Counted from the stretch's first letter, positions 31,736 to 62,864 are shown. The stretch is 64,000 nt of DNA from an uncultured Chloroflexia bacterium (GCA_963778955.1 CAVZWI010000001.1:1074383-1138382), one strand, 5' to 3'. Notes: generated by a model not told the origin, from the sequence alone. Translations and numbers: made by a program.

Positions 31736-31738
31736 ATG

Positions 31739-32015
31739 CCGGTCCCAGCCGATGGGAGGACTGACGCCCAATGCGTATCGGCGGTCGGAGCCGACGCCAA
31801 CGCCGTCGAGCTCAAGGACTCCATCAAGGCACACCTCATCGGCCACGCGTCGGTCCAGGAGATCACCAAGGCGCGCAAGAGGTCCACGGACAAGGTCGCC
31901 CTGCCGGACAGCGGACGGAAGTGGCTGGCGCAGTATCATGCGCAGGACGTGGCCCGGCTGTGTGAGGTCATGTCTGATCCGGACGCCACACAGTGGAAGA
32001 GCGTCGCCTGCGACG
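31739..32015 (+). pseudogene. Chimeric gene remnant: rpiB 5' fragment (with its RBS) fused in frame to a sulfotransferase C-terminal fragment
   Basis: 31739-31846 is about 90% identical to 36507-36618 (the rpiB upstream region plus its first ~27 codons). Downstream, …QEITKARKRSTDKVALPDSGRKWLAQYHAQDVARLCEVMSDPDATQWKSVA aligns with the tail of the intact sulfotransferase (…AQISRARKKATSQVEVSVETRRMLATRYAADVTRLQELMPDLDVSLWKSLA). Confidence 0.65.
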
Positions 32016-32086
32016 GGTCTTCCGCCACCGCCGTGACATCCGGTCGCCGTTGATGACATCCTCCCGCCCTTGATGGAGACTGCGCC

Positions 32087-33378
32087 GTGAACCGCTTCGG
32101 TGACGTCAGCCTGGTGATCGTGGGCGCAGGGCAGCGCGGCAGCCAATACGCCGAGCTGGTTGTTCGGGAAGGGGCCACGATCGTGGCTATCGCCGATCCA
32201 TCCAGCGAGCGTCGTGAGCGCTTGGCGGATGTGGTGGGCGTGAGCCATGACCGCTGTTTCGATGACTGGTCTGACCTGGCTGCGCGTGGCCGCTTGTCCA
32301 TGGCTGCGATCGTCGCGACCCCCGATCGGCTCCACCGGGATCCGGCGGTCGCGCTCCTTGACCTGGGCTACGACGTCCTGCTCGAGAAACCCATGGCGCC
32401 GAACGAGCCGGATGCCGAGATGATCGTCGCGGCGGCAGAGCGACGTGGTGCTCACCTCGCGGTGGCACATGTCATGCGCTACCAGCCCCTGACCCGGGCG
32501 ATCGAGGCGCAGCTTGGTGCTGGCGGCATCGGGGAGATCGTCTCCATCCAACACCTCGAGCCGATCGGGGACTGGCACTTCACACACTCCTTCGTGCGCG
32601 GGAATTGGCGCAATGAAGAGCAGTCGGCATCGGTGCTGCTCGCGAAGTCGTGCCATGACATCGACTGGCTATCGCATCTCGTGCGTTCGAGGCCCGTGCG
32701 GGTCTCGTCATTCGGCGGTCTCTACGAGTTCCGACCGGAGCGAGCCCCGGATGGTGCCGGGGAGCGATGTCTGGATTGCACCATCGAGCCCGACTGTCCC
32801 TTCTCCGCCAAGCGTGCCTACCTGCCCTATCTCGATCTGCCTAATCGTGAATCGGCCGGTCAGCGCGGTGACCGATGTGCGCACCGCGGAAGGGCTGGTT
32901 GCTGCCCTGAGACCGGCCCCTATGGCCGTTGCGTGTACCACTCGGACAACGATGTGCTCGACCACCAGGCTGTGAACATCGAGTACGAGTCTGGCGTCGT
33001 GGCCAGCTTCCTGATGTCCGCCTTCACGCCCATGGGTGGGCGCGAGACCCGCATCGGTGGCACCAAGGGTCACCTGGAAGTGGCCGGTGACGAACTGAAG
33101 GTCTACCGCTTCCTCGATCGTTCGGTGACCATGGTCCCGATCCTCGAAGACGAGATCAGCCAGCAGGACGCCGCCGCAGGACACTCAGGCGGTGACATCG
33201 GTCTGATCCGCGCCTTCGTCGGCGCGGTGCGGAGTGGGGAATCGTTGCGGGTACCAACCGACGGCGCGAAAGCCTGCGCACCCATCGCATCGTCTGGGCC
33301 GCTGAGGAGGCCCGCCGGGAAGAGAAGGTGGTCACCTTCGAAGTCGAGAGAGTGCTAGTCCAGCCCCACGCGACTTGA
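32087..33378 (+). pseudogene. Gfo/Idh/MocA family oxidoreductase; at least 3 frameshifts
   Basis: VIVGAGQRGSQYA, LLEKPMA, SCHDIDWL, GPYGRCVYHSDNDVLDHQ. Frame changes near 32855 (expected …NREWPVSAVTDV), near 32908, and near 33270 (AAA run; the tail …ESLRTHRIVWAAEEARREEKVVTFEV is in another frame). Confidence 0.8.
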
Positions 33379-33447
33379 CCACCGAGTGATGCTGATCCAC
33401 CGCGTGAGCCAGCCCTCGCCCGGACACAGCCCCTGGTTTCGGGAGGT

Positions 33448-34972
33448 CTATCGGGCGCTCCCTCCTCCCTGCTGCAGCCCCCGTTCCCTGGCGAACCGGG
33501 CCAGGGCGTGGACCGTCTCGGCCGTGGCCGGGTAGAGCTGTCGGAACCAGCCGTAGAGGTCGGCGTAGACCCCGCAGGCGGCCAGGGTCGGCGAATCTGA
33601 AGACGCGACCCTCGACCAGTCGGTGTCCTGGCCGAGCAGGCCCGCGGCCATGCCACCGAACAAGGCATCGCCGTAGCTTGCCCCGATGGTCTCGGCGGGA
33701 GCTGCTGGGCGATGCCGGTGGTCGCTGACGATCTGCGGCCAGAGGGGATGCGTCGTTCCGCTGCGCTGGCGACGGCCACCAGCCGGCGTGGTATCTGCCC
33801 GCCCCGGCGAGCGACTCGAGCATGTGGCGTGCACCGTAGGCGGAGCCTTAAGATAGCCCGGTAGAGGTGCCCGCGGCCGTGACGCAGCGTCAGGCCGGGC
33901 TATACCCCGCGCGCGTCCGGGTCGTAGAAGGGGTTGCGCTCACCCATAAGTAGGGGAGCACGATGAGCCCATCCGAACCGGGCGACACCTCGGCGGCTTC
34001 AGCCAGCAGCGTCTCGTAGGGCACCTCACCGACCAAACGCCGCAGCCACTCGGTCAGCGCCCCCGCGGTGGTGACGCCGCCGGCCAGGGTCCGAGGTGCC
34101 AGGCAACGCCCCAGACGACTCCCCACATCGAGGGCACCGGTCGGAACGGGGCCAGCATGTGGACCAGGGTAAGGGCCGTGCCGTACATGAGCATGGCCTC
34201 ACCGGGCATGCGCACACCGATGCTGGTGGCCTCGGCCCAGGCATCGATGGTGCCGACCGCGACGGGGGTCCCCGCACGAAGCCCACACTCGTCGGCCGCT
34301 GGCGCCCGGATGGTGCCTGCCGGGTCCGACGCCCAGCCGAGGCGCGGCATCTTGAGCCCGGGAGTGACATCGTCCAGTCGGTCCGCGATCCAGGCGCGCT
34401 CGTCGAGGTCGAGAGCGGCGTGCAGTGGCTGGCCGATTGATGGTCCAGCACGTACTCGCCGGTCAGGCGCAGCACCAGGTAGGACGCGACCATCCCGAAC
34501 CGCCGCGTCCGGGCCCAGACCTCGGGTTCATGGTGCCGGACCCAGAGGGCCTTGGGGCCGACCGACTGGCTGGTGACCTGGGCGCCGCATCGCTCGAGAC
34601 CCGTTCGGCACCGTAGCGCTCGGTGAGCTCCTCGATCTCTGCCGAGGCGCGTGTGTCGATGCCGTAGAGGATGGCCGGCCGCAGTGGCCGGTCGTGGGCG
34701 TCTAGGGGCACGAATGCCGGTCCCAGGCCACTGACGCCCAGCGCCACGACACGGTCCGCATCGACCGCCGCCGTCAGCTCCCTGGTGATGGTGCAGAGGT
34801 CATTCCACCAGACGGCGTCAGCATCGTGCTCGGCCCAGCCCGGGTGGGGCATCGACACATCGTGCGCCCGGCTGGCCCGGGCCACGACGGTGCCATCCAA
34901 CGTCGATACGACGCCCTTGGAGTAGGACGTGCCGATGTCCACGCCCATGAGCAGCTCCGCGCCCTGCGCCAT
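33448..34972 (-). pseudogene. FGGY family carbohydrate kinase (xylulokinase-like); about 7 frameshifts
   Basis: Pieces lie in all three minus frames: MGVDIGTSYSKGVV, MVASYLVLRLTGEYVLDH, VAVGTIDAWAEA…MLMYGTAL, LAGGVTTAGALTEWL, DGLIVLPYL, ETIGASYGDALFGGMAAG. Confidence 0.8.
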
Positions 34973-35255
34973 CGCTCGAGTGTGCCTGTCCGCGGACGCT
35001 GATGCTGGCGCACTTCGCGGGTCGATGGAACCGGGCTCGGCCGGGCTGACCGTATCATCGTGGTCATCTGGGCGATTTCGCGACGCCGACATTCGGCTGC
35101 CGGTAAATTCCGTGGGAATGACTGCGATGATGGGATACGCGCTATCCAGGGCCGGGCCTGACCCAGGGAAATGACTGGCTCCGTGCCTTTGGCTTGATCT
35201 GTCGACCCGTGCCCCGGATGGCGCGCTGGTCGCCGGCAAGACGAGCAGTGACCTC

Positions 35256-36447
35256 ATAGGAGCCTGGACAAGAGGCCCCATCGCAGTCCTGTCCGCTCGC
35301 CCTCCGGCCGTGGCCATCACCACCATCGAGCAGGACGGAGGAGACGACCATGAGCAGCATGACGCACCGGGCGGCGGAACGCCACATCACCGTCGGCGTC
35401 GACACCCACAAGGATGTCCACGTCGCGGTCGCGCTCGACTGGCTCGGCGCTCGCATCGGGGAGCTGCACCTGCCGACGACACCGGCGGGTTACGCTGACC
35501 TCGAACGGTGGGCGGCCGGACTCGGTGCTGTCGAGGCCTTCGGGATCGAGGGCACCGGTTGCTACGGGGCGGGTCTGGCCCGCTACCTCGACGGCCTCGG
35601 CCACCGCATCGTCGAGGTGAACCGCCCCGATCGGGCCACCCGATATCGCCTCGGCAAGGCGATCCATCGATGCCGAGATGGCGGCTCGCTCGGTCCTCTC
35701 GGCACCGCGGTCGGCATCCCCAAGCGGGCCGATGGGAGCGTCGAGATGATCCGCATGCTCAAGGTGGCCAGGGCTTCGGCGGTCAAGGCACGGACCCAGT
35801 CGCTCGACCAGATCAAGGCGTTGCTGGTCACGGCACCCGCAGAGCTGCGTGAGTCCGTCCGCGGTCTGTCGACCCGCGCCTGCTCGACCGTTGTTCCGCG
35901 TTCCGTCCCGGTGTGCTCGACTCACCGACGGCGGCAGCGAAGGTCGCGCTGCGCAGCCTGGCCCGTCGCAACCTCGCGCTCCGGGACGAGGCAAAGGAGT
36001 TGGACGTGGGGATCGGGCGGCTCATGGCCGGCTCGGCGCCCGGGCTGCTCGCCGCGTTCGGCGTGGGTCCTGACAGTGCGGCGACCCTCCTCGTCAGCGC
36101 CGGGGACAACCCCTCGCGGATGCGTTCCGAGGCCGCCTTCGCCGCCCTCTGTGGATCAAGCCCGATCCCGGCCTCGTCGGGCAAGACGACGCGACACCGC
36201 CTCAACCGCGGCGGGGACCGTCAAGCCAACGCCGCCCTGTACCGCGTGGTCGTGGTCCGTCTTCGCTGGCACCAGCCCACCCAGGCCTACATGGCCCGCC
36301 GCACCGCCGAGGGCAAGACGAAAGCCGAGGTCATGCGTTGCCTGAAGCGCTATGTCGCCCGGGAGATCTTCGGTCTGCTGAGCGCCGCTGGGCAGACGTC
36401 GACTGCTCCAGCATCCGGGCTGGGGTCAGCTTGACATCTATAGGAGC
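35256..36447 (+). mobile_element. IS110 family insertion sequence (boundaries tentative)
   Basis: Contains an IS110-type transposase. The 8-mer ATAGGAGC occurs at 35256-35263 and 36440-36447, bracketing about 1.18 kb. No terminal inverted repeats, as expected for IS110. Confidence 0.6.
35350..36434 (+). pseudogene. IS110 family transposase; at least 3 frameshifts
   Basis: N-terminal DEDD domain ITVGVDTHKDVHVAVAL…AFGIEGTGCYGAGLARYL. C-terminal domain in another frame: FGVGPDSAATLLVSAGDNPSRMRSEAAFAALCGSSPIPASSGKTTRHRLNRGGDRQANAALY. Breaks at about 35661, about 35700 and about 35878. Confidence 0.85.
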
Positions 36448-36537: not shown

Positions 36538-37051
36538 ATGCGTATCGCGGTCGGAGCCGACGCCAACGCCGTCGAGCTAAGCGACCTCATCAAGGCACAC
36601 CTCATCAATCGGGGCCACGAGGTCATCGACTTCGGCCTGCAGGCAGGGAGGACGTCGACTATCCCGATGTCGGCGAGCCGGTGGCCCGCGCCGTGGCCGC
36701 GGGCGAGGTCGAGCGGGCGGTGCTCATCTGCGGCACGGGGTTGGGCATGGCCATCGTGGCCAACAAGGTCCACGGCGTGCGTGCTGCCCCCGTGACCGAT
36801 CCTACTCCGCGGAACGGGCCATCAAGTCGAACAACGCCCAGGTGCTCTGCCTGGGCAGCCTGGTGGTGGGCTGGAACGTGGCCCCGCTGCTGGTCGACCA
36901 CTGGCTCGACGGGGAGTTCGCCGGTGGTGGCTCGGCTCGCAAGGTGGCCAAGCTCGAGGCCCTCGACGAGCGCGAACGAGGTCAGCAGCGCCTCCCGGTC
37001 GCCGACCGCCGGACCGTCCCCGCTCAGGCCCGGGCGCTGCCGTCCCAGTAG
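36538..37051 (+). pseudogene. rpiB: Ribose-5-phosphate isomerase B (RpiB/LacAB family); at least 2 frameshifts
   Basis: MRIAVGADANAVELSDLIKAHLINRGHEVIDFG; then VLICGTGLGMAIVANKVHGVRAA and NAQVLCLGSLVVG in other frames. One break is at GATCC(C)TAC, about 36801. Confidence 0.8.
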
Positions 37052-40000
37052 CGATTGGCCAGGGCCCAGGCTTCGCGTCCGCAGGCGGCGCCCATGACGC
37101 GGCCGTTGAGGTCATCGGCCCTGATGTGGATACCCCCCCACAGCCGGCTGATGCCGGCCTGGTCCGAGGCGTCGAAGTAGGTCGCCCACTGCAGCACGAT
37201 GTCCTGTTCCGGACCGCGCTCGAACTTGAGCGAGCCGGCCGGGATGGTCCACGTGCCAATCCCGCCGGGGAAGTACGCGCTCCCGGTCATCGCCGCGAGC
37301 ACCTCGGCCGCGGCGCGGCTGAACGACGAGTGCCCGCTGACATAGCCGGCGAAGGCCGGCGTCACGAAGGTCGCCTTCTGGTAGGGCACCCACTCGACCG
37401 CGCGGATCCACTCCACCCCACCGAGGTCATTGACGGGGTCGTCGGGGCCACCGCTCCAGGCGTAGATGGCGACCTCGCCGATGTGGTCGGCCAGGTGCGC
37501 ATGGCGCTCACCGGGGGCTGCCGACTCGGGGGTGATGAGCTCGACCTCGCCGGGGATGAGCGGCAGTCCCTCGGGGTCGTACGAAGGCAGGTCCGGGTCG
37601 CTCGACTGGCCCAGGCCGCCCATGTAGCGGATCATGGCGATGGGCCTCGTGAAGTCGTGATAGCCCTTCGCGCCCCAGGCGGCGACCGCGGCATCGTGCA
37701 CCGCGCCGTTGAGCGCGAGGTACATCTTCACGTCCCACTCGAGGGGGTCCAGTTCCTCGCCGCTGCCGCCGATGCGACGCTCGAAGCCGGCCGAGTCGGT
37801 CACGGCGTTGGCGAGCGTGTTCCAATGGCCGGGCGGTGTCTCGGAGCTGGGTCCGTCGGCCCAGAACTCGGCCACCGCGCGGCCGAAGTCGGCCTGGAGC
37901 ACCGGCTCGGGCGTGTAGGGCTCGCCGGTGACCGGGTTCTGCGCGTACCCGGTGCCATCGTTGGTGCCCAGCGGATTGCCGCCCTGGGTCGCGGGCGAGA
38001 TGTCGATGACGATGCCGTCGCGCGGATCGAGCTGACCGCTCAAGGCGACGACCTCCTCGGCCATGGCCTTGAACTCGGCGTCGCTGGCCGGGTCGCCGAG
38101 GTAGGGCGGTGGCCCCGGGTCAACGGGCACGCCGGTGTCGGACGGCGGTAGGGCGAACGAGGTGACGTGGCCCCAGTGCTGGCCCACGAAGTGCTGCGGT
38201 CCGAAGGGCAGGAGCTGGCCGTTCTGGGCGATGGCCGTCGCGAGCGCCAGCGGCTGCCAGTGGTTGGGGTCCTTCATGACCGTCCCCGGATTCCGCCACG
38301 ACCATGGGCTCGTTGACCGGCTGGTAGCCCTGCTTGGGGTAGGCGTAGCCGTGCTGCTCGCGTGAACCGTCCTTGAGGCCGGCCTCGATGATGGTGGCGG
38401 CGATGCGGTTGCCCAGGGCGGCCGCCGAGTCGCCACGCGTGCCGGTGCGATCGGTGGGGTAGCAGAGGGCGGCCATCAGCTCGTCGAACTCATGCAGGCT
38501 GACCTCGCCGCCGACGGCCTCCCGGTAGCGGTGCGACAGCACCCGATAGGCGGCATAGCTGACGGCCTTGTCGCGGGCCGCGGCGGGGTCGCGCGCCGTG
38601 GCCTTCTCGGTGACGAAGACGCCGTCCGCGACCGGATCATAGGCCGCCCAGGCATCCCACATGGCGGCGGACGCGTGATAGAGGTTGCGTGCGTGCACCG
38701 TAGGGGCCGGGAAATCACGGCGGATGGCATCGAGCAGCGCCTCGTCCCAGAGCCGCGCCACCGACTTGCCCGGATCGGCGCTGCGCACGCAGGTGGCGGG
38801 GTCGATCGGTTCGAGAGGCTCGACCGCGGGCGAGATCGGTGTCTCGGGTTCGTCGGCGGTGTCGACAGCGTCGACGGCGTTAGCCGTGGACGGAGTGCCA
38901 CTCAGGACTGCGGCGGGGTCGAGCACCAGCGGCTGAGCGTCACGTCGGATGAGTACCTGCGCATCTGCAGAGACCAGCTGCCACGGGCCCCGCTCGCCGT
39001 CCGGCCACTGCACCCGTACCTGCACCTTCTTCGCCTGGCCCAGGCCGAAGTGGTGCGGCCCAAGCTGGCCACTGCCATGCCCGCCCCCGATGGTCACCTC
39101 CAGCCGCTGGGTGCGGCCCTTGCTCTTGACCTCGATCCAGGCGCCGACGGCGTCGCGATTGTCGCCCTCCTGCTCGAGACCGACAGCCAGCCAGTGACCC
39201 ATCGGTCGAGGTTCCTGGACCGTCCCGGAGCCGACGTTGCGCCACACCTCGGCCGGCTCGCCGAGCTTGACCTCGACGATATCGAGCAGGCCGTCGAGGT
39301 TGAGATCGACCACCGCCGCTCCACGTCCGCGTGCGTAGTCGACGAGGCCTGCCTGCTTGGTCCGTTCGACGAACCGGCCGTCCGGGGTGCCCAGCATCAG
39401 GCTGCTGGGATTCGACGTGGCGCGATCGGGCATGGCATCGACGTTGCCCTTCGAGACGAACAGGTCGACGCGGCCGTCGTTGTTGACGTCCTTGAACTCG
39501 GGATGCCATGAGGTCGACGGCCGCTCATCATCTCCGGCGACCGGGCGGCCCAAATCCACGCCGCGTTCCCTGGCGATGTTCTCGAAGCTGGGTTGCGCCG
39601 GACCATCGGCCAGGGTCTCGAGGCGGTTGCCGAACATGCTGGTGAGATAGGTCTCCGGGTAGCCGTCGTCGCCGAAGATCCTGGCTGGCGATGCCCATGC
39701 CCCAGATGTTGACCCGCTGCCAGCCATCCTCCTCGGAATACAGCGTTGGTTGCTCGCCGTCGCCCATGCGCCAGAGTTGCTCCTGGCCATCCTGCACGTA
39801 GAACTCGCGATCGTTGCTGATGCGCAGGTCGCGTCGGCCGGAGCGGTCCCAGTCGCTGAACAGCATCGAGAGGGCACACCAGCCTGGCGAGAGCGTGAGC
39901 GCGGGCCCATATGTGGTGGCGTCCGGTATGAGGTCGGAAGAGCCGGTGGTCCGAGCAGCCCGCGGCGAGCGCCCGGATTCCGTCCACCGCCTGGTAGTTG

Positions 40001-40568
40001 CCGAAGGCGAGCGTCGGTAACGCGGCGCCGTCGTCCCAGGTGGCACTGAAGGCCGTGGTCCAGTCGTTGCCGGGTCCAGGCCCATAGTTTCGTTGGCCCG
40101 CTCGAAGCGGCAGTCGCCCAGCCCCCGGAGCAGGACGTTCTCGCCGCGGCGCAGCACGATGAGGTCCGCACGGCCATCGCTGTCGACGTCGATCGGATAC
40201 GCGCCCGAGACCTGTGCCAAGTCCGTCTCGTCGCCGGCCAGGCGTCTGAACTGCAGTGGGCCACCGGGCTCGCTCTCGTTGCGGTACAGCGAGGCCGGGC
40301 CGCTGCCGCCGGCGAAGTACAGATCCGGCCGGCCGTCGTCGTCGCAGTCGAGCACGGACATGCCGCCGCCGACCACGAATTCGAAGCCGCCATCCGGCAC
40401 CTCCGGCGTGGGCTGATACTGGTAGACGTGTCGCAGCCCGGACGAGGCTGTCTCATCGATAAATCGTGGCGTCTGGACATCGGCGGCCGCCACGACCGCC
40501 GACGGCAGCGTCGCCGCCGCCATGGCGGTCGCGAGGGCCGCGGTCAGTCCTTTGAGCCAGATGCTCAT
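37024..40568 (-). pseudogene. Secreted CRTAC1-family (FG-GAP/VCBS repeats + ASPIC/UnbV) protein fused to a C-terminal vanadium-haloperoxidase/PAP2-like domain; at least 5 frameshifts
   Basis: Signal MSIWLKGLTAALATAMAAATLPSAVVAAA. DCDDDGRPDLYFAGG, DVDSDGRADL, DVNNDGRVDLFV, DLNLDGLLDIV, GAWIEVKSKGRTQRLEV. Then ARLWDEALLDAIRRDFPAPTVHARNLYH and the PAP2/VHPO motifs KGYHDFTRP, YVSGHSS, SRLWGGIHIRADD. Confidence 0.8.
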
Positions 40569-41807
40569 GACTGGATCACAGTGGTCGCTGCCCTGACGGG
40601 GAGGCCTCGGACACAGCGGAAGAGCGCCTTCTCGTCCTGCCACTCCACTCGCTCGTCGGCCAGCTCGATCGAGGGCATGCGCTCGAGGATCGTGCGCAGC
40701 GCCGTTCTCGCTTCCAGGCGCGCGAGGGGAGCGCCGATGCAGAAGTGCACGCCACTGCCGAAGGCGATGTGGCGGTTGGGCTTGCGGCTGACATCGAAGC
40801 CGTCCGGCTGGTCGAAGTGGTCAGGATCACGGTTCGCGGCGCCCAGGAGCTGGATGACGATCTGGTCCTCCCGGAGTTCGCGGCCACCCAGCTGCGTCGT
40901 CTCGGTGACCCTGCGGAAGGTGCGCTGGATGGGGCTGTCGAAACGCAGGGTTTCCTCGATCGCACCGGTCAGCCCGCCGCTCATCCGTGCGCGCTCGAGC
41001 TGCTCGGGGTTGGTGAGCAATCGATAGAGAGCGTTGGCGATGAGGCTGGTGGTGGTCTCGTGGCCGCCGATCAGGAAGGTCACACAGGTCGAATGAGTCT
41101 CGTCGATGGTGAGCTGCTCACCCGCCTCTTCGACACTGACCAGCTGGCCGAGCAGGTCATCCCGCTCTTGCTCGCGACGTTCGGTCATCAGCTCGCCGAT
41201 ATAGGCGCGCATCCCGGTCACCGCGGCCGCTGACGTGGGTACCGCCTCGGGGATGGCCCGGCCCTGACCCTGGAAGGCGACGATGCCGTCGGACCAGCCT
41301 TTGAAGCGATTGGAATGCTCGGGCCGCGCCCCGAGCAGCTCGGCGATCACGATGGCGGGGAGGGGATAGGCCAGGTCGGCCACCACGTCGAAGCTCGAAC
41401 CGGGGTCGACCTCGTCGAGCAGTCGGTCGACGATGCTCTGGATGCGTGGCTCCATGGCCGCGATGACGCGCGGTGAGAAGGCCTTCTTGATGAGCCCACG
41501 CATGCGCGTGTGGTCAGGCGGGTCGGTGTGGATGAGGCCCGACGTTGAGAAGTGCTCTCGCAACGGTCCCGCCTCGGCGAGGGCATCCTCAGGCAATGCG
41601 TGGATGAGCTCGAGGAGCCGGCCCTTGCTGGAGAAGCGTTCGTGGTCTCGCAAGGTCTCCACCACGTCGTCGTACCGGGTCACGTGATGCGCCCCAGGCA
41701 TCGCTCCAGTACACCGGCTCCTGCTCGGACAGCGCCCGATAGGCCGGGTACGGATCCTGCGCGAAGCCGGGGTCGGTCAGGAGCGCGTCAAGGGTGGCTC
41801 GAGTCAT
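40565..41807 (-). pseudogene. Cytochrome P450; one frameshift near the N-terminus
   Basis: GGHETT, EETLRF, heme loop FGSGVHFCIGAPLA. The N-terminus MTRATLDALLTDPGFAQDPYPAYRALSEQEPVYWSDAWG is in another frame (break about 41700). The stop overlaps the CRTAC1-fusion start (ATGA, 40565-40568). Confidence 0.85.
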
Positions 41808-44067: not shown

Positions 44068-44115
44068 GAGACGCCCGGCGGCCAGCCGCATCCTCGCACT
44101 GACAGGGAGGACCCC

Positions 44116-50362: not shown

Positions 50363-50522
50363 TCAGGCCCCAGCGCACGACTGACGGGTGGTCGCCCATC
50401 GATCACCCGTCGGTTCGGACTTTCCCGAGGGCGAGCCGGCCACATCCTCCAGACTGGCTCGCCATCGAGCCATCATCCACATCCCCACTCGACTTCCTAC
50501 ACGCACCGGAGGCGATCGAACC

Positions 50523-51304: not shown

Positions 51305-51382
51305 CGTCTCGGTCCGAACCGCTTTGTCGCCGACACGTGCCACGATGGGCACGTGTCTTCCCCGCTCCCCCAGGAGGCGAAC

Positions 51383-52617
51383 ATGGCGCTCCCTGAGCCG
51401 GGTGTCTTCGATCCGCTGTTGGCGTCTGCGCAGTACGCCCAGGACCCCTATCCCGCGCTCGCCGCCATCCGTGAGGCAACGCCGGTGTACTGGAGCGATG
51501 CGTGGGGCGTCTGGATCGTGACGCGCCACGAGGACGTCGTGGCCATCCTCAAGGAGCCGCAACGGTTCTCGAATGCCGGCCGGTTCAGTGTCTACCTTGA
51601 CCAGTTACCGTCCGAAGCTGCGCCGTACGTCCAGCCGCTGCGGCGCCACTACGCATCAGGGATGCTGCAGTCCGATCCGCCGGCCCACTCGCGTCTGCGT
51701 CCGCTCATCAACAAGGCCTTCACGCCCCGTGTCGTCGAGGGCTCTCGTGACCGCATCGCCGGCATCATCGACGAGCTCATCGCGGGATTCCGCCAGCGCG
51801 GGAGTGGGGACCTCCAGCGTGAGTTCGCCTACCCGCTGCCGGCCATCGTCATCGCCGAGCTGATGGGGGTCCCGGTGAGCGACCGCGATCTGCTCATTGG
51901 ACTCTCTGACGGTGTGGTCGGGATCCAGCGTTCCGGCAAAGCTGCGGTCGATGAACCTGGTGCGTTCGGCCGAAGCGATCGTGGCCATGGAGGACTACTT
52001 CGGTGACCTGTGCCGGGAGCGCAGGGCGCATCCCGGTGACGATCCATCACCGCTCTCGTCGAGGCCGAGGAGGCCGGTGATCGGCTGGATGAAGCTGAGC
52101 TGATCTCCATGTGTACGACACTGATGATCGCCGGCCACGAGACCACGCGGAACCTCATCGCCAACGGCATGCTGACACTCATGCGGCGTCCTGACGACCT
52201 GCAACGACTGCGGCAGGACGAATCCCTCCTCCTGAACGCGATCGAGGAGATGCTTCGCTACGAGAGCCCCATCCAGCGTGGTTGGCGACGCATCGCTCAA
52301 GACACGGAGCTGCACGGTCAGCAGTTACGCGAGGGCCAGCTCCTTTACCTCATGCTGGGCGCGGCCAATCGCGACCCACGTGTCTTCGACGAACCTGACG
52401 CCTTCCGCATGGAACGCAAGCCCAACCGCCACGTCGCGTTCGGGTTGGGGGTCCACTTCTGCGTGGGGGCCCCGCTCTCCAGACTGGAGGCCGGTCGACC
52501 GCATTCCCGGCGCTGCTGGCCCTGCCCGGACTGGCACTCGCGACAGAGGAGCTGGAATGGACGGCTAGCGTCACTCATCGCGGCCTCGAGTCCCTCCCGG
52601 TGGCGTTCGATGCCTGA
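51383..52617 (+). pseudogene. Cytochrome P450, copy 2 (paralog of 40565-41807); frameshifted
   Basis: AGGAGG-N5-ATG. DPYPALAAIREATPVYWSDAWGVWIVTRHEDV, MIAGHETTRNL, EEMLRYESP, FGLGVHFCVGAPLSRLEA. Breaks at about 51970-52100 and about 52495. Confidence 0.8.
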
Positions 52618-53403
52618 GCCCCATCCGCTGCTCACTCAACATCGCGTTCCACTTTCCGGGGCTGCCGCTCCATGACGCACTCGATGGGGCCGCGGCGGCC
52701 GGGTTCGGACCATCGAGCTGCTGGACCCCTACAGCACCGACCTTGATGAACTGGTGCAAGCCCTGGACCGTCGCGACTTGAAGGTAGACCTCTTCAACCT
52801 GCCCATGGGCGATTTCGCGGCCGGAGACCGCGGTTTCGCCGGTGACCCGCGGCGGCGTGAGGAATTCCAGGCCGGCGTGGAGCAGGCCGCGCGGATCGGG
52901 GCACGGCTGGGCGCAAGCAAGGTGAACGCACTGTAGGGCGTCTGGTCGACGGCGAGACCGGATCCGCGCAATACGACTGTCTCGTCGAGCAGCTCGGCTG
53001 GGCGGCGGGCCGGCTTGCCGACCAGGGTGTGCGACTGGTCACCGAGCTGCTCAACCCCGTCGAGACACCTGGCTTCCTCCTCTCCTCGCTCGGACAGGTC
53101 CGCTCGACCCTGGCTCAGCTCGATGGCCGGGTCGGGTTCCAGTTGGACGTCTATCACCTCCAGCGCACGCACGGCGAGCTCATCCCGACCATCCACCAGA
53201 TGGCGCATCTCACCAGCCACTACCAGATCGCGGATCATCCCACGCGGACCGAGCCGGGTACCGGTGAGGTCAACTACCGCAACGTCCTCTCTGCCATCGC
53301 CGCGACTGGCTACCAGGGGCTGGTCGGATGCGAGTACAAGCCCAGTGCGCCGGACGTCGATGCCTTCGCGTGGATGGACGAGCTAGGCGTCCTGAAGGCG
53401 TAG
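52610..53403 (+). pseudogene. Hydroxypyruvate isomerase-like (xylose isomerase-like TIM barrel) protein; at least 3 frameshifts
   Basis: …LNIAFHFPGLPLHDALDGAAAAGF, DLFNLPMGDFAAGDRGFAGDP, VRLVTELLNPVETPGFLL, FQLDVYHLQ, HYQIADHPTRTEPGTGEVNY, GCEYKP. Confidence 0.7.
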
Positions 53404-53482
53404 GCGAGGCGCCAGTGCGGACTAATCGCGACCGGCCGGGCAAGGAGGGGCAGGCGAGGCGAGAGGCTCGTCCACTTCCGCG

Positions 53483-54727
53483 ATGCCACCGCCCGCTATG
53501 CTTGCGGGCGTGTCACGCTCCCGCCGAGGTGCCAGCGCCTACGTCCCGCAGTACGTTCGCATCCGCGATGAGATCGGTCGCCGCATCGAGGCCGGTGAGC
53601 TCAAGCAGGGTGAGCGCAGCCCCTCGTTGCGCGAGATGTGTGACGAGTTCGGCGTCTCTTCGATCACTGCGCGCCGCGCACTCCTCGACCTGCTCAACGA
53701 GGGCATCGTCGAGCGACGCGGCGGCCTCGGAGCATTCGTCACCGGTATGCGTCGCCATTACGCATCGCCGTCATCATCATCGGCTATAGCGAGAGTGCGT
53801 GGCGCCAGAACAGCGGCTCCTTCGGACAGCTGGTCGGTGGCATCGCGTCCTCAATGTGGGAGCACGAAGCACTCCTGACCGTGTTGCCCGTGAATAATCC
53901 CCTGACCGCCTCTGTGGCCTTGCGCCAGCTGCTGCACGACCAGCCGGTTGACGGGCTGCTCTTCCGTGTCGCGGGTGACGTGGACTGGCGCGTCGTGGAC
54001 ATTCCCGCCGAGCAGGAGATCGGAGCCGTCCTCATCAAGCGCACGCCCCCGGCCACCGGCGTACCCGCAGTGCTGTCTGACGCGCGAACCGCCGGCTCCA
54101 GTGCCGTCGAACATCTCGTCGCCCTAGGTCATCGCCGTATCGGTCTGCTCTCGGCAACTGCCTCGACCGACACCTACCGCGACCACAAAGCGGGCTTCAT
54201 CGAGGCGCTTGACAGCCACGGCATCCGCGTGGGGCGGGAGTTGGTCTCCGCGGTCCAGAGCGTGTTCGCCGAGGACCAAGTGTTGCCGCGGAACGCCTTC
54301 TCGATCCTGCTAAGAAGCCTTGTCCGACGGCGATCGTCTGCAACGCCGATTTCCTGGCGCTGGATGTCTACGAGGTGGCGGCAGCACGAGGCCTTCCGCA
54401 TCCCGCAGGACCTCTCGGTGGTCAGCTTCGACGACATGGAGTTTGCGCAGCACCTGCAGCCACCGCTGACGACCGTGCGGCTCTCCTACTACGACCTTGG
54501 GGGTGAGCCGCCGCCGTCAACGCTCTTCCGCGTCCTCGATGGTGACGAGGTCCCCACGGTGCAGGAAGACCCCCGTCGAGCTCATCGTCCGGGAGTTGAC
54601 TGCTGCCGGTCTTCTGCTGAGGACGACCGGCCGGCGGGCCGCCCATATGTCGCAGGCGCCGGGCGTATACTTGCAAGGTGTGTATACACACATCGCATAC
54701 CAGCCTGCCCCTGCAGGGGCTCCCTGA
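53483..54727 (+). pseudogene. GntR-type HTH regulator fused to a LacI/PBP1-type sugar-binding domain; frameshifted
   Basis: YVRIRDEIGRRIEAGELKQGERSPSLREMCDEFGVSSITARRALLDLLNEGIVERRGGLGAFV; then …LVALGHRRIGLLS…SVVSFDDMEFAQHLQPPLTTV. The 3' end is uncertain. Confidence 0.65.
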
Positions 54728-55899
54728 CCTCTCGTGAGCGCGTCCTCCCACGGCCCTCGACCACCGAGAGCCTGACCGGGTGCCCTACGACTTCGGTGGT
54801 ACGTTCGTCACCAGCAGTCATCTACGTCGCCTATCGCCGCCTACGTGAGCACCTGGGGCTGTCGCCAGACGTCCGGTGTCGCGGACATCCGCCTCGGCCT
54901 CGCCTGGACCGACCGCGACGTCCAGGGATGCCTGCGGGGGGCGGATGTCGGCATCGTGGCCACAGGCCCACCAAAAATCCTGCCCAGCTGGCAGCTCGAG
55001 ATCGGGGACGCCGGCGCGTACCGTGAGCTCACCGATGAGTACGGCATGGGTTGGCGGCAGCCCGGGAGAGGGCGGTCTCTACTACGACCTCTTCCACAGC
55101 CCATTGGCCGACGTGGAGACGCCGGCGGAGGTGGCCTGCATATCCTTGGCCGGAATCCGACTGACCCTTATCGGTTCACCAACATCAGGGCTGACTGCGA
55201 GCGCGTGGTGTTCGAGGAGAAGCGCGCGTCCGCCTGCAAAGGCATTATCGCAGGCACGCTGGAAGTCTCGTCTCTGGATGCGGGGAATTCCAGCGGTTCT
55301 TCATGGACCTTGTCCAGGACCAGGTGCTCGCCGGAGCCATCCTTGACAAGGCACCCTAAGATCAAGTTGCGCTTCTGGGAAACTGTCTTCGCCGAGATCG
55401 GTGACATCCTCGACGTCATCTACGACGCCGACGACTACGGTAGCCAGATGGCTCCTGTTGATCGCCCCGCACCCTCTGGCGCAAGATGATCAAGCCGCGT
55501 ATCTCGGAGCTTGTATGCCTTCGTCCACGGCAACAGCCGGGCGAAGGTCTTCCTGCACTCGGACGGCGCCATCAAGTCGCTGATCCTCGGACCTCATCGA
55601 GGCGGGTGTGGACGGGCTCAACCCCGTCCAATTCACCGCGGAGGGCATGGACCTGCCGGAGCTGAAGCGGGAGTTTGGGCGGGAGAATCGCCTTCTGGGG
55701 AGGAGGCGTGGATACGCAGAAAGTGCTGCCGAGAGGCACACCCGAACAGGTGCGTGAGCAGGTGCTCCGCAACGTCGAGACGCTGATGCCTGGTGGCGGC
55801 TACATCTTCGCCACCGTCCACAACATCCAGGCCGATGTCCCCCCGGAGAACATCGTGGCCATGGTCGAGGCCCTCCGGGAGGCCGGCGTCTACCGCTAG
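54725..55899 (+). pseudogene. URO-D family protein, copy 2 (paralog of 41917-43160); many frameshifts, start codon position reads CTG
   Basis: (L)TSRERVL…DRVPYDFGGTFVTS…AYRRLREHLGL, VDGLNPVQFTAEGMD, IAFWGGGVDTQKVLPRGTPEQV, GGGYIFATVHNIQADVPPENIVAM. Confidence 0.7.
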
Positions 55900-56949
55900 T
55901 CCAGGCTGCCGCTCGCGGCCTCCGCTTCGACGGCCTCACGCACCGCGTTCCAGCCGCTGATGAAGGCATCCCTGAAGTGCTGCACGGGGCCAACTCTTCG
56001 AACTCGGTGGGGCTCAGCGCAGTGACGTCCAGCGCCCGGCGGAAATCATCGAAAGAGTTCGAGAGCTGCTCCTCGATCGCCGCGGGCGCCGATCAGCAAT
56101 CGTCTCGCGACGTTCCGGATCTGCTCGAGGCCGCAGCGTAGGTCGACCAGTTGATGGTCGCCGCATGTGGCCCGCCCACCAGGCCGGTGAGGTCGGCAGT
56201 GGTCCGGGCGCCACCGTAGAGAAGTTGCACCGGATAGTCGCGCTCGTCGACCAACCGCTTGGCAGCGCGAGCCCAGATGACCCCCGCCCACGGCACGGCC
56301 TCCGGCGCGATGTCGATGCCATCCCGGGCCGCGACCTTCTTGAGGTGATCGCCGAAGATCCCCGTGATGGGGGCCATGATGAACACGGGCGTGTTGCCGC
56401 TCTGCGCCGATGCCCGCTGGTACCGCTCGCAGGTCTCGGCGACCTGGGCGAGACTGAAGACCTCCGTCATGAGCACCGGCTGGTCGTCCTGCACCAGTTC
56501 ATCGAGAGCCGCGAGACCCGGGAGGGTCAGCGGAAACCTGGGGGATGCAGTTGGCGGCAACAGAACGGGCGACGCGCGCCGCCGCGAGGATCGGCTCTGC
56601 CGAAGTATCGAGTTCCGGTGCCCCCTGCATCGAGACCCATCCCTCACGGCCGTTGGAGCGCTCATAGATGTTGGTGAAATCGGGCAGGATGCGCTCGACC
56701 AATCGCCGCTGGACGAGAGCCACGGCTTCGTCGCCGCGAGCACCCCCGGCTAACCACGGCGGCGATGTCTGGGCAAATCTCACCGGGAGCCCGACCGAGC
56801 AGGTTTCCACCGAACGCGGAATTCGTCGTGCAGGCGACAGCGCCCTGTGCCAGGGAGAGGTCAAGTACTTCGGCGGCGGGGTGGGGTTGGTTGATCCAGA
56901 CGCGGCTGCGTGTCTCCTGCCGCAGCCACTCGAAGTACGTTTCGCTCAT
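55896..56949 (-). pseudogene. Transaldolase family protein; many frameshifts
   Basis: MSETYFEWLRQETRSRVWINQP…GAVACTTNSAF, …VFIMAPITGIFGDHLKK…, …LLYGGARTTADLTGLVGG. The stop shares a CTAG palindrome with the URO-D-2 stop. Confidence 0.65.
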
Positions 56950-57196
56950 GGGCTTCTGCTTGGCTCCTCACGCGTTACGTTGATAACCTGTCCGTCGGAC
57001 CCTGATATGCTTGCATGCACACTTGTCCCGCAGGCAAGTCCCGGCATCGCCGTAAGACGCGGGTACCATGCCGGGGCACTTGAGGGACGATTGGACATGA
57101 CTACTCCAACACCGTCAAGCAACGCCATTGGCTGCGGGTGCCCCTGTGGGGCTCTCACAGAATTGCCTCGTTCGGGCTAAGCACTCCAGGCTCTTC

Positions 57197-57864
57197 TTGG
57201 CCGTGCCGCCACCCATCGTGCAGGTCTCCATCGACGTGCCCACGGTCAAATAAGGCCATCGGAGATCGGGCACATGGCCAAGCGTGCCGGCGTCGACCTT
57301 CTCGAGTTCGGGACGCCGCTGGTGCTTGTACCAGGGTCTGTCGGTGATCGAGTCCGTTCAAGGCGGCGTTCCCCGACGATCCCGTGCTGGCCGATGTCAA
57401 GATCGTCGATGGTGCCAGGAAGTACGTCGTCTCCGCGGCCAGGATGGGGGCAGACTTCGTCACCATCTGTGGCGTCGCACATGACGCCAGCATCCGGCAG
57501 GCGCTCGAGGGTCAGGCCGAGACGGGCATCACCGTCGTGGTCGATTTGTATGCGGCTCCCGATCCGGTGCGAGCGCGCACGTGAGGTCGTGGAGATGGGT
57601 GCGCAGGTGGTGCTCGTTCACTACGGTGGCGATGCCCGGCTCGGAGAAGCCGGATGCGGACGACACCATCGAGATGCTCACCCGCACCAAGACGGCCGTC
57701 GACGTGCCGGTGGGCATCGTGACCTTCGACCCGGCCGGTGGTGAGAGCGGCTGTGGCAGCAGGCGCTGACATCGTGCTGATCGGGCATCCCTACCTGTTT
57801 GGGCCCTGACGCCGAACCGATGTTGACCGAGTACGTGCAGCGAGTGAAGGCCGTCCGCGCCTGA
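57197..57864 (+). pseudogene. Orotidine-5'-phosphate decarboxylase-fold enzyme (3-hexulose-6-phosphate synthase / 3-keto-L-gulonate-6-P decarboxylase-like); many frameshifts
   Basis: VQVSIDVPTV, GVDLLEFGTPL, LADVKIVDGARKYVVSAARMGADFVTICG, VPVGIV…GADIVLIGHP in different frames. Confidence 0.6.
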
Positions 57865-57914
57865 ACGACAGATCGGGTCCGGCACCACGGATGGCCACAG
57901 GGGGGACTGGTGAC

Positions 57915-58959
57915 ATGAAAGCGATGCTGCTCAGCGCACCGTTGACGCTGGAGGGATCGTAGAGCAACCGGACCCTGTCATCGCGCGCGAGGACGATGTC
58001 CTGGTGCGTGTCCAGGGCAGCGAGCGTATGCGGCTCGGATACACACGGCTACGACGGCAAAAACGGCCGCCGTGTGGCGCCGCTCGTGATGGGACATGAG
58101 GCCAGCGGCGAGGTCGTCGCGGTCGAGGCCGGCGGTCACCGCGGTCGCCCCCGGTGACCGGGTCTTCGTCATGCCCATGCACTGGTGCGGCAGCTGCGAT
58201 GCCTGCCGCAATGGCCAGATTCGGACCTCTCTCCCAACCGCAAGGTCTACGGTGGGCGGGGACCTGCCCGGGGCCTTCGCCGAGCTGTTCCTGGTGAGCG
58301 AGCGGACGGCCATTCCCATCCCCGACGCAGGTCAGCTTCCAGCAGGCTGCCCTTATCGAGCCCCTGGCCGTGGTCGTCAAGGGCCTCTCGCGCGCGAAGA
58401 TGGACGCCGGTGACAGCGCTGCCGTCATCGGCGGCGGCCCGATCGGGCTCATCGCCACCGCGGTCTTGGCCCTGCACCGTCCACGCCAACTGATCGTCCT
58501 TGAGCCGCTGTTTGCCGCCAGGCGCGAGATCGCCCGGCAGAATGGGCGCTACGCTCGTCCTCGATCCCACGGCCGACGACGCCATGGACGCCCTCATGCA
58601 GGCCACCGCTGGTCTGGGCACCAGACCTGACCGTCGAGGCTGTGGGGCTCCACGGCCTCTGTCGCCTCGGCGGTGGGTGCGACGGCACGCCGGCGGTCAG
58701 CTCGTGTGGCGGGCTAGGGCAACGTCGGTCGAGTCGTTGAGGATCGACGAGTTCAAGGTCGTGTGGAACCAGCTGACAATTCACGCGAGCGTCGGTGTCA
58801 GCCGCCAGTCGGTCGAACGGGCGATCAAGCTCATCGCCGATGGCTCGGTGCCGGTGGGTGAACATCCTGACGCTGGATGTGCCCCTGGACGACGCCGTGG
58901 AGGCATTCCACCGAACCGCGCGCGACCCTGACGTGGTGAAGACCATCATCCGCCCCTGA
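57915..58959 (+). pseudogene. Zinc-dependent alcohol/polyol dehydrogenase family protein, copy 2; many frameshifts
   Basis: VCGSDTHGYDG…MGHEASGEVV, GDRVFVMPMHWCGSCDACRNGQ, AAVIGGGPIGLIA, tail DDAVEAFHRTARDPDVVKTIIRP. The first break is at GAGGGATCG, about 57955. Confidence 0.75.
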
Positions 58960-58965
58960 GGGTGG

Positions 58966-60635
58966 TCAGCCGGGGCGGGGAGAGGATTCAGTCAGCCCTC
59001 CGACGAGCAGCTGCCGGCATCGCCCCGGCCATCGCGCTTGAGCGGAGGGGCCAGCACGAGGTGGCGCCGGCGTCGAGCGCGCCCCGCGACGCTCGCCCAG
59101 CCGGCTCGCCCGGCCAACCGGGCGACCAGTCTCGCGTCGACTCGGCCCCGCTCGGCCGCCGCGGCCATGCCTCGAGCGCCTCCGCAAACGAGTCGCCGGC
59201 ATCGACCGCGGCGAGGCCCGGCCGCGGGCACCAGCACGTCGAGCAGCGTCTTGTCGCCGACGCGCGCTCGCCGATGTCACGGCCGCGCGGCCGGCGTCGA
59301 GCATCCGGCCGAGACGCGGCGCGTCGACTGGCGCTCGGCGCCTGCCGGCGGCGGCCATGTCGAGGAAGAGTGCCGTAGAGCGGGCCCATGGCGCCGCCGA
59401 TCTCGGTGATCAGCACTCACCGAGGACTCAGGCCCTCGCCAGGCCGACGGGTCGCGCCCGACTGCTCCGCGCGCACGCCAGAAGCCCTTGTCCATGTTGA
59501 CGCCGTGATCGCCGTCCCCGTCGCGCCGTCGATCTCGCTGAGCCGCACGGCGTTGTCGTGGATCGCCTCGATGAGGGCGTCCACGACGGCGCGTCCCTCG
59601 GTTGCCGGGACAGGACTTCACGTCGCGTCATGCCGCAACTGGCCAGGCCGACGCATCGGCATCCGCGTCGATCAGCGTCCTGAGCTCGTCGTCGAGTCGC
59701 ATCACGGTCAGCGGTCACGCCCATCATCTCGAGCGAGGTGAAGTAGTTGCCGACGTACGCACGATGGACGCGCAGCCCTGCGTCGTCGAGGAGTGCCCGC
59801 GATGTCGACCGAACAGGATGTACAGCTCCATCACGGGCGTCGCGCCGAGACCGGACAGAGGACCACGACGTCGTCGCCCGCCGCGAACGGCAGGTCCGGC
59901 AGGACGAGTCGAGCATCATGCGCGGCCATCTCGCGCGCCGGGCAGCGGCTCGACCGCGACGCCCGGCTCGCCGTGGTGGCCGATGCCGACCTCCATCGTC
60001 CCGGGCTCGATGCTGAAGTTGGGCTTGCCGACGGCCGGGATCGTGCACGGCGTCAGCCCGATGCCGACGCTCCGGGTCTTGTCGATCGCGTGCTGCGCCG
60101 CCGCGATGACCTCGTCGAGCGTGCCGCCGGCGGCGGCCTTGCGCCCCCGACCTTCCACATGCAGGACCTCGCCGGCGACACCGCGCCGTTTCTCGCGCTC
60201 GTCTGCGGCGGCGCCGAGGGCACGTCGTCGTTCGCGACAACGGTCTCGACCCGAATCCCTTCGCCTGCGGCCATCCGGCGGGCCAGCTTGACGTTCATGT
60301 TGTCGCCGGCGTAGTTGCCGTACAGGCAGGCGACGCCCCTGGCCGCCGTCCGCGGCCTGGAAGGCATCGAGGAACGCTTTGGCCGACGGGCGACGAGAAG
60401 ATCTCGCCGATGGCGACGGCATCGACCATGTTGCGGCCGAGGTAGCCGATGAAGGCTGGCTCGTGGCCGGAGCCGCCGCCCGTCACGAGGCCGACCTTGC
60501 CGTCGACTGGGCGCTCGGACGGTAGCGCAGGACCCGAGGGTTCTCGGTCGCGGCGACGACGTCGCGATGCGCGCGCAGGAAGCCCCTGAGCATGTCCTCG
60601 ACAACCTGCGACGGGTCGTTGATGATCCGTTGCAT
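58966..60635 (-). pseudogene. Dihydroxyacetone kinase (fused DhaK-DhaL type); many frameshifts
   Basis: [71 protein letters not shown], and DhaL-type GGAMGPLYGT and GDKT-like segments, spread across frames. Confidence 0.75.
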
Positions 60636-60735
60636 GGGTCTCTCCCTGATCGGCTCCTACTGCTGGTTCGCAGGTATGCATACACGCTTGCTTCCAGCCT
60701 AACGTCCTACGCCGGGCTGGGCAAGTGCGTGGCCG

Positions 60736-61618
60736 TCAGATGCGGAAGTAGCGCTCGAGCGTTTCCGCTGAACATGGCCGTCTGCTCTTGGTGGGGGAGT
60801 CGCGGATGAGCGTCGCCCAGGTGTCCACCACGTCGGGGTAGGAGGCGAAGAGCCGCCCGAAGGGCCAATTCGAGGCGAAGATCGCGCGCTCAGGCCCGAA
60901 CGCCTCGATGCACGCCATCACCCACGGGCGCACGAAATCGATGGTCCAGCGTGGTATCGCCGATGTCGAGCCCAAAATCTTCACGATGACGTTGGGGGCC
61001 TCGGCCAAGTCCAATCTGTCGCCGCCAGAAGTCGAAGTACGCGTCGTCGCGCTGGCGTGGGAAGCCTGCGTGGTCCAGGCACACGCGCATGTCCGGGTAG
61101 TCGCTGGCAAGCCGTTTGACGTCGGGATACGTCTCCGGCTTGGCGTGGACGCAGCTGACGAGCTGATGCTTCCCGAGGAGGGCGAAGCCCCGCCGCCAGG
61201 CGGCGTCGCCCAGATATCTGCATCGTCTCGATACTCGCGCACACCGCGTACGTTCGGAAAGGCCATGTGACGCTCGATCACGGCCTCTGCGTCCGGCTGT
61301 GCGAGGTGGACCTCGGCGACGATGCCGTGCGGGTGGCCGAGCCGGTCGGCGAACGCCTGGATTCAGCGAGTCTCCTCGACGGGATCGAGATCCGCCCGCG
61401 CATTGGACGTGGATGGATTTCACGACGTTGGCGAAGCGCGTCTCGGCGAGCCAGTCGTCGGCCCAGTAGCGCGAGGCCTTGATGGCGCGGATGTCCTCGA
61501 TGATCTCGTGCTGCGCCCCGGGCTTCAGGAGGTCGTACCGGAGGTCGGGTTCCTCCAGGTCGTAGAAGTGGACATGCGTATCGATGAAGGGCAGATGAGC
61601 CACGCGGAAGCTCCTCAT
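60736..61618 (-). pseudogene. Amidohydrolase-2 (TIM-barrel metal-dependent hydrolase) family protein; at least 4 frameshifts
   Basis: FIDTHVHFYDL, RVCLDHAGFP, ERAIFASNWPF…TLERYFRI in different frames. Confidence 0.7.
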
Positions 61619-61676
61619 TGAGTCCAACTCGAACAGGCGCCCCACCCGGCTGGATGAGGCGTCTGCGTCGATCAGG

Positions 61677-62864
<1,188 letters not shown>

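Follow-up and report, generated by a model that had tools for sequence, protein, structure and literature searches.

What has broken almost every gene in a 30-kb block of a bacterial contig? The question is raised by a stretch of 64,000 nucleotides (nt) from an uncultured Chloroflexia bacterium (GCA_963778955.1, CAVZWI010000001.1:1074383-1138382), referred to here as the window. Nearly every gene between about 31.75 and 61.76 kb of the window is frame-broken, and every gene that could be tested proved to be so. The genome looks like that of a Limnocylindria-like member of the Chloroflexota. A first reading of the sequence (the original prediction) had offered two explanations: that a long-read assembly has here a segment of low coverage or one that varies between strains, or that a recently silenced catabolic island is undergoing slippage-driven decay. 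Our analysis indicates, with high confidence, that the block truly belongs to this genome as a strain-variable catabolic locus, that its deposited sequence is a badly polished consensus from a long-read-only metagenome assembly, and that its frameshifts are not biology.

In order to measure the damage, the comparison with orthologous regions that the original prediction had proposed was carried out on nine syntenic loci (L001 to L009). All nine belong to Chloroflexota metagenome-assembled genomes (MAGs), and they were found by searching a one-genome-per-species collection with the reconstructed sugar-binding protein encoded at 49384-50362. Five of them (L003, L005, L006, L007 and L009) are colinear with the window over approximately 39.2-60.5 kb, whereas the colinear spans of L001, L002 and L008 are shorter; nucleotide identity between the block and the syntenic loci is 72-81%. 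Seven of the nine come from "MFD..." MAGs, while L004 and L007 lie on contigs with k-mer names, suggestive of MEGAHIT short-read assemblies. The window was cut from 39.3 to 60.4 kb into anchored chunks of about 1.2 kb, each of which was aligned with MAFFT L-INS-i. An insertion or deletion (indel) was called private when it was present in one sequence and at least 80% of the other sequences agreed against it, and was called non-3n when its length was not a multiple of 3. These DNA-level counts were preferred to plain tblastn, which crosses frameshifts at low identity and therefore undercounts lesions.

The window contained 168 private non-3n indels in 21.1 kb, or 8.0 per kb, and 154 of them sit in 20 genes at 1-16 per gene. 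The nine syntenic loci ranged from 0.17 to 2.1 per kb, with 0.17 in L004, 0.5-0.65 in L003, L005 and L006, 0.94 in L001, 1.26 in L007 (mostly longer indels) and 2.0-2.1 in L002, L008 and L009. For the flanks the comparators were closer relatives (L010 to L016, 75-94% nucleotide identity), against which 10.9 kb could be aligned. Ten private non-3n events were found there, most of them between called genes, and only two, at 21488 and 61762, were clearly coding. The indel density therefore steps up at least tenfold from flank to block. The event at 21488 is a single extra T (CCAA[T]TTCG), by which a pyridoxal-dependent decarboxylase gene is frameshifted; lying in the clean left flank, it illustrates the background error, which amounts to about one per several kb.

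The original prediction of a run of broken genes some 30 kb long, with a step change at its borders, was thus borne out, and it had placed correctly both the end of the left-hand sulfotransferase gene (31735) and the start of the right-hand ugpC-like open reading frame (ORF; from 61677). The lesions are denser than the one break per 0.3-0.5 kb that it had estimated, however: over the right-hand two-thirds of the block one occurs about every 125 nt. The two edges described as sharp are not equally so: on the right the step falls within about 100 nt of the boundary between the amidohydrolase and malK genes, but the left third (32-42 kb) is sparser, with about 1-4 events per kb, and the left edge is less abrupt.

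The spectrum of the indels is informative. The 168 private events of the window divide about equally into 90 insertions and 78 deletions, and 153 of them are 1-2 nt long (64 one-base insertions, 61 one-base deletions and 28 two-base events). Inserted bases were equiprobable (A18, T18, G16 and C11) in a genome with a guanine-plus-cytosine (GC) content of 68%; deleted bases tracked the genome composition. The inserted base equaled its neighbour in 30 of 63 scorable one-base insertions, where a random base would be expected to do so in about 44% of cases by our own estimate, made with no computed control. A run of three or more identical bases was created by only 7 of these 63 insertions and was hit by only 15 of 60 scorable one-base deletions. 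The lesions are therefore not mostly homopolymer deletions, as had been supposed. Likewise the reported association with GATC proved marginal, the motif lying within 3 nt of 16 of the 153 small events versus 9.8 expected (p = 0.047), and no enrichment of any 4-mer at these 153 events survived multiple testing. A methylation motif, whether GATC or another 4-mer, is accordingly not supported as the driver.

Insertions and deletions were also segregated along the block. A runs test gave 47 runs where 84.6 were expected (z = -5.84), and the counts per kb were over-dispersed (index 3.0, p = 9e-6). Deletions alone occurred at 45.3-45.9, 46.5-46.9, 47.4-47.75 and 59.09-59.43 kb, and insertions alone at 54.4-55.7 and 56.5-59.0 kb, with 27 insertions within 57-59 kb; the stretch at 48.8-50.1 kb was almost free of indels. 

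These data bear directly on real pseudogenisation, according to which the locus is dispensable, has been deleted in sister lineages and is decaying here through frameshifts. Where genes truly decay, nonsense and missense changes accumulate, deletions are favoured over insertions and include larger ones, and repeats undergo slippage. In the block the four bases are inserted about equally often and do not copy the adjacent base, the counts are balanced, few events involve homopolymers, and no bias towards deletions, homopolymers or repeats was found. Instead of the random spread of lesions that decay would be expected to give, insertions and deletions lie in separate kb-scale runs. No large deletions were seen relative to the syntenic loci, in agreement with the original prediction. 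A more novel reading is that the frameshifts are real and that the native locus, already deleted in sister lineages, is in an early, indel-dominated phase of decay under an unusual non-slippage process that inserts random bases in kb-scale tracts; this we consider very unlikely.

The state of the coding sequence beneath the indels was then compared between the window and its relatives. When each sequence was projected onto the reading frames of L007, the window (about 6,400 codons) showed eight in-frame stops, two to four of them specific to the window, and the relatives showed two to five, mostly natural, slightly earlier stops. Removal of its 13 insertions converts the second zinc-dependent alcohol dehydrogenase (Zn-ADH) gene into a complete ORF of 339 amino acids (aa), so that the excess of small indels goes together with ORFs that are restored when the indels are taken out, as would be expected of an artefact. 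Substitutions were estimated for each branch by three-point comparison, using only columns at least 10 nt from any gap. On the window branch 5.2% of second codon positions and 21.4% of third positions had changed (ratio 0.24), compared with 2.1% and 13.5% for L009 (ratio 0.16) and 1.6% and 14.4% for L008 (ratio 0.11). The excess at position 2 is modest and patchy. Within the densest insertion stretch, at 57.5-59.0 kb, singleton differences amounted to 0.5% at codon positions 1 and 2, which is no excess, and in the deletion-rich stretch at 59.0-60.4 kb the substitution noise was extreme and flat over the codon positions (10.5%, 10.5% and 17.9%). The patches thus differ in their error profiles, as would be expected of a tiling of poorly supported consensus segments and not of a single mutational history.

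The raised ratio of the window branch (0.24 versus 0.11-0.16) and the few private nonsense codons are what pseudogenisation has in its favour at this level. Approximately eight indels per kb beside only two to five private nonsense codons in more than 6,000 codons is nevertheless unlike neutral decay, the densest insertion run is not enriched in changes at the first two codon positions, and nonsynonymous and nonsense changes have not built up with the indels to the extent that relaxed selection would require. Slippage-driven decay of a silenced island, the second explanation in the original prediction, is contradicted by the equiprobable insertions, the segregated runs, the lack of excess at 57.5-59.0 kb and the scarcity of nonsense codons. 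We therefore regard pseudogenisation as very unlikely.

The same noise is present in sister assemblies. The patch of L009, in the equivalent of window 46.8-50.0 kb (at about 7.3-10.0 kb of the locus), comprises 24 one-base insertions with not one deletion among them, L008 has 22 insertions in the equivalent of window 55.1-59.5 kb (at about 16.5-19.4 kb of the locus), and L002 has a similar insertion-only patch in the equivalent of window 55.9-58.6 kb. In all three patches the inserted bases were near-equiprobable. The closer relative L011, which is 90-94% identical to the left flank of the window, is noisy over the whole of a region in which the window is clean, with 27 private non-3n events, 19 of them one-base insertions, and many split gene calls. 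One-base events numbered none in L004 and five in L007, the two loci whose contig names suggest short reads. The pattern is thus found in assemblies of the same technology and not in the putative short-read ones, and the genes that it hits in the catalogue's other Nanopore MAGs are different, conserved ones, which argues against pseudogenisation of one locus. We conclude that the noise is a property of the data set and not of the locus.

The patches in sister MAGs are 3-13 kb long, consist of one-base insertions of random bases and fragment ABC transporter, alcohol dehydrogenase (ADH) and housekeeping genes. A few insertion columns are shared, at window positions 57572, 58131 and 59466 with L008 and at 56751 with L002. 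Their interpretation as systematic error hot-spots was set aside, since MAFFT tends to merge nearby gaps.

The close relatives whose contigs have Flye-style "contig_N" names are all ENA records in the range ERZ250394xx-ERZ250396xx or MFD MAGs. The MFD long-read catalogue was produced from Nanopore reads only, with Flye (--meta --nano-hq) and one round of Medaka polishing, and its authors noted signs of Nanopore error in the lower-coverage MAGs (PMC12313526). The same group had earlier reported that Nanopore bins below about 40x require short-read polishing (PMC9262707). We infer that the contig of the window comes from this same Nanopore, Flye and Medaka catalogue. The fragmentation of genes in low-coverage assemblies made with Nanopore reads, Flye and Medaka only (the effect quantified by the IDEEL test) resembles the block in that indels of 1-2 bases break ORFs while each frame segment keeps a high protein similarity, in that it is tied to read support and to lower-coverage MAGs (PMC12313526, PMC9262707), and in that the same patches appear in sister contigs. 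The block differs from the classic form, in which homopolymer indels are spread genome-wide, because its errors are confined to 30 kb of a 1.75-Mb contig, lie largely outside homopolymers, include as many random-base insertions as deletions, and fall into insertion-only and deletion-rich runs.

The edges of the block indicate why the noise might begin and end where it does. The features at the two edges are as follows.

30830-31735, plus strand: intact sulfotransferase, the last gene of the left flank, identical (100%, 301 aa) to database protein P0001; Pfam PF00685/PF13469.
31736-31775, no strand: left junction, of which about 35-40 nt still resemble, by eye, the sequence downstream of the sulfotransferase in the relatives.
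31776-32053, plus strand: 3' fragment of another, diverged sulfotransferase; its translation of about 90 aa shares, as judged by eye, about 50% identity with the C-terminal end of the preceding sulfotransferase.
61677-62864, minus strand: MalK/UgpC-like ABC ATPase, the first gene of the right flank, 98% identical in amino acids to MalK of L014 over 364 residues.

The left flank aligns to L011-L016 with 86-94% nucleotide identity up to 31735-31745 (the alignment to L014 stops at 31745), and synteny with all close relatives stops at the left junction, 31736-31775. The sulfotransferase fragment has a match in L010, where blastn aligned positions 10722-10882 with window 31845-32005 at 69%. Of the two junctions only the left one is a rearrangement, specific to the lineage of the window, and the sulfotransferase fragment marks its breakpoint. 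At the other end the ATPase gene, although described as intact in the original prediction, has an extra G at 61762 compared with L014 and L015, which shifts the frame and replaces the last 25 or so residues. The noisy zone therefore runs about 50-65 nt beyond the structural boundary.

Three of the close relatives, L014, L015 (GCA_038251965.1) and L016, pass directly from the sulfotransferase to malK, the two genes being 97-350 nt apart, and their alignments break off at window 31720-31745 and resume at 61710-61715; on L014 the gap measures 29,970 nt. This adjacency identifies window 31745-61715 as a strain-variable segment. In L010 and L011 the sulfotransferase is followed by other content, a region of sugar-transport, aldo-keto-reductase and transketolase genes, and in the genome of L003 the homologue of the block lies about 47 kb further along the same contig. 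In L017 (from the L006 genome) and L018 the gene order is malK, Amidohydro_2, Dak1, Dak2, ADH, OMPdecase, TAL, URO-D, GntR-type regulator, AP_endonuc_2, P450 and SDR, which is the order of the window from 62.9 kb back to 50.4 kb. The conserved order from malK into the amidohydrolase in L017 and L018 argues that the block is native and ancestral beside malK, and not foreign DNA; the close relatives appear to have lost it. Loss from L014, L015 and L016, the closest relatives, fits the dispensability on which pseudogenisation depends, and the truncated sulfotransferase at the left end together with an IS110 element may also be read in its favour. The interval otherwise resembles flexible catabolic loci at a chromosomal hotspot, being empty in L014-L016 and differently filled in L010 and L011. 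Variability of this kind is ordinary biology; it accounts for where the poorly supported stretch starts and stops, but not for the frameshifts.

A chimeric misassembly, in which a block from a rarer organism was spliced between the sulfotransferase and malK genes, would explain why synteny with relatives of 86-93% identity breaks exactly at the left edge, why a partial second sulfotransferase lies at the junction, and why the error level is so sharply unlike that of the flanks. The right junction, however, with the amidohydrolase beside malK, is the conserved ancestral arrangement seen in L017 and L018, and two precise joins returning to the same genome would be needed. Block and flank are also equally diverged from the one genome that holds both (77-78% for the flank, as L010, and 77.8% for the block, as L003), and this equal divergence of about 78% argues against a cross-species chimera. 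The GC content of the window is 65-71% throughout, with no compositional step at the edges of the block. A chimera is thus highly improbable.

The remaining alternative is that a mobile genomic island was integrated and inactivated not long ago, a reading for which the absence of the 30-kb segment from the closest relatives and the presence of an IS110 transposase might speak. No integrase was found, no tRNA or Rfam feature was found at the ends of the block, and the composition is the same as that of the flanks. The only terminal repeat seen was a 10-nt direct repeat, ATGCGTATCG, at 31771 and 61574; one copy is near the left junction and the other inside the amidohydrolase gene, away from the right junction, and its occurrence is at about chance level. 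The sole mobile gene is the internal IS110, and the chromosomal gene order, malK junction included, is conserved in at least nine related genomes. A mobile island is hardly credible in view of these findings. A megablast search of 24 kb of the block against a plasmid collection gave trivial matches only, to the IS110 element and an ABC motif.

Two further differences in gene order or content were seen among the relatives. The Dak2-Dak1-amidohydrolase group of the window (59.0-61.6 kb) is inverted in L001 (19.5-21.0 kb) and L002 (19.4-20.9 kb) with respect to the window, L003, L005, L006, L017 and L018. In the left flank, a CbiM-PDGLE-CbiQ-ABC (cobalt/ECF-type) operon at 23002-25987 is also present in L010 and is absent from the closest relatives there, L011, L012 and L014.

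Taken together, the noisy stretch is the structurally variable segment and the conserved flanks are clean, which suggests that support was good where the variants in the sample agree and poor elsewhere. Under the favoured explanation, that of a native locus in a badly polished consensus, the effective read support over the block would be much poorer than over the flanks, either through few reads carrying the block or through diverged haplotypes having been collapsed into one consensus. The flanks, common to variants without the block, would have been polished normally. Over the block the consensus would keep errors of the raw reads or of the polisher, which may have left or created random small indels, and these would appear as kb-sized patches, each with a bias of its own, whether insertion-only, deletion-rich or nearly clean. 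Depth or haplotype mixing would be the direct cause. The first explanation of the original prediction, low coverage or strain variability within a long-read assembly, is in this way supported by the absence of the segment from the closest relatives, the noise in the catalogue and the random indel spectrum.

Several points weigh against this account. The poorer read support over the block is inferred rather than observed, and the exact software step that would give insertion-only runs cannot be named. The reported min_read_cov_cutoff of 8 for large datasets (PMC12313526) weakens a plain explanation by 1-3x depth, and renders the collapse of heterogeneous strains no less probable than simple low depth. 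No noise is seen in a second strain-variable segment, the CbiMNQO operon at 23.0-26.0 kb, whose ORFs look intact. Change at codon position 2 on the window branch (5.2%, measured away from gaps) exceeds the expected 2.4-3.3%, and the few window-specific nonsense codons, which are concentrated in the deletion-rich patches, would fit relaxed selection too.

The gene content of the block is listed below; indel counts are private non-3n events.

32087-33345, plus strand: Gfo/Idh/MocA oxidoreductase with at least three frameshifts, two of which, near 32.84-32.92 kb, compensate each other and another of which lies at 33265 (tblastn with P0125, P0127 and P0130).
33448-35000, minus strand: FGGY carbohydrate kinase in at least four frame segments; FGGY_N matched at 2-120 of 245.
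35350-36434, plus strand: IS110-family transposase with a frameshift between its domains, DEDD_Tnp_IS110 (1-78 of 155) and, in another frame, Transposase_20 (8-85 of 87).
36542-37030, plus strand: RpiB/LacAB sugar-phosphate isomerase in three frame segments; LacAB_rpiB matched at 35-87 of 138.
37024-40646, minus strand: large FG-GAP / UnbV_ASPIC / DUF6851 / VCPO_2nd-PAP2 protein in at least four frames (Pfam, frame segmentation, alignment and tblastn of the L007 ORF).
40589-41800, minus strand: cytochrome P450, first copy, one indel; Pfam p450 on the L007 orthologue.
42034-43180, minus strand: URO-D-like decarboxylase, first copy, nine indels.
43358-44085, plus strand: GDSL-like lipase/acylhydrolase, six indels.
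44172-45233, plus strand: Zn-ADH, first copy, seven indels.
45310-45689, minus strand: RhaM-like mutarotase, five deletions.
45682-50362, plus strand: ribose-type ABC transporter with 15 indels in the ATPase, 14 in permease 1, two in permease 2 and one in the Peripla_BP_4 binding protein.
50363-51292, plus strand: short-chain dehydrogenase, seven indels.
51362-52614, plus strand: cytochrome P450, second copy, three indels; p450 annotation in L017.
52620-54579, plus strand: AP_endonuc_2 protein (xylose-isomerase-like TIM barrel) and regulator of the GntR/periplasmic-binding type, two and six indels.
54709-55896, plus strand: URO-D-like decarboxylase, second copy, 15 indels, of which 14 are insertions.
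55923-56951, minus strand: transaldolase (TAL_FSA), six indels.
57082-58959, plus strand: OMPdecase-family protein and Zn-ADH, second copy, 10 and 13 insertions and no deletions.
59018-60700, minus strand: dihydroxyacetone kinase subunits Dak2, with 16 indels (25 per kb) of which 14 are deletions, and Dak1, with 11.
60735-61645, minus strand: Amidohydro_2 TIM-barrel hydrolase, the last gene of the block, seven indels and a TGG>TGA change (versus L017, L018, L001 and L002).

The underlying locus is an ordinary strain-variable, or flexible, cluster for sugar and polyol catabolism. Its oxidoreductase gene at the left end contains a 423-aa ORF that is identical (100%) to database protein P0124. 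An amidohydrolase fragment of the window likewise has a 100% match in the protein database, and these two proteins and P0001 all derive from a single contig of 1,746,884 bp in NCBI and ENA. In the homologue search for the oxidoreductase the next best match was only 64% identical, and its contig (L019) had no shared neighbours. Codon-model segmentation of the FGGY kinase changes frame three times. The large FG-GAP protein is hit by private indels at 39674, 39921 and 40072, and at 40519 by two deletions, of 4 nt and 1 nt. Its architecture, with FG-GAP, UnbV_ASPIC, DUF6851 and a vanadium-haloperoxidase-like VCPO_2nd/PAP2 portion, is unusual, and at least the N-terminal part is conserved in L003, L005 and L009. 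P450 and URO-D-like decarboxylase genes occur as paralogous pairs at 40.6-43.2 and 51.4-55.9 kb, the two P450 proteins being about 46% identical; together with the two Zn-ADHs, these pairs suggest duplicated modules for related substrates. A search of metagenome contigs with the corrected Zn-ADH found no relative above 68% aa identity.

Outwardly the block is similar to the pseudogene loci of genomes under reductive evolution, such as those of Mycobacterium leprae and recent symbionts, in having consecutive frameshifted genes in a region that is missing from related lineages. The deletion bias, larger deletions and repeat slippage of Mycobacterium leprae-type decay were not seen in the block. 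On the favoured explanation the frameshifts have no biological weight of their own, and their significance is one of caution: a public MAG contig of 1.75 Mb can hide 30 kb with an indel error of about 1%, and similar patches of 3-13 kb are present in sister MAGs, including loci from the GTDB one-genome-per-species collection. Broken ORFs of the block already figure in the protein database as "proteins", P0124 and P0282 among them. Patches of this kind can raise the number of supposed pseudogenes, fragment gene calls and mimic gene decay or the silencing of an island, and they can be flagged without recourse to reads when private non-3n indels are counted in a comparison with syntenic relatives.

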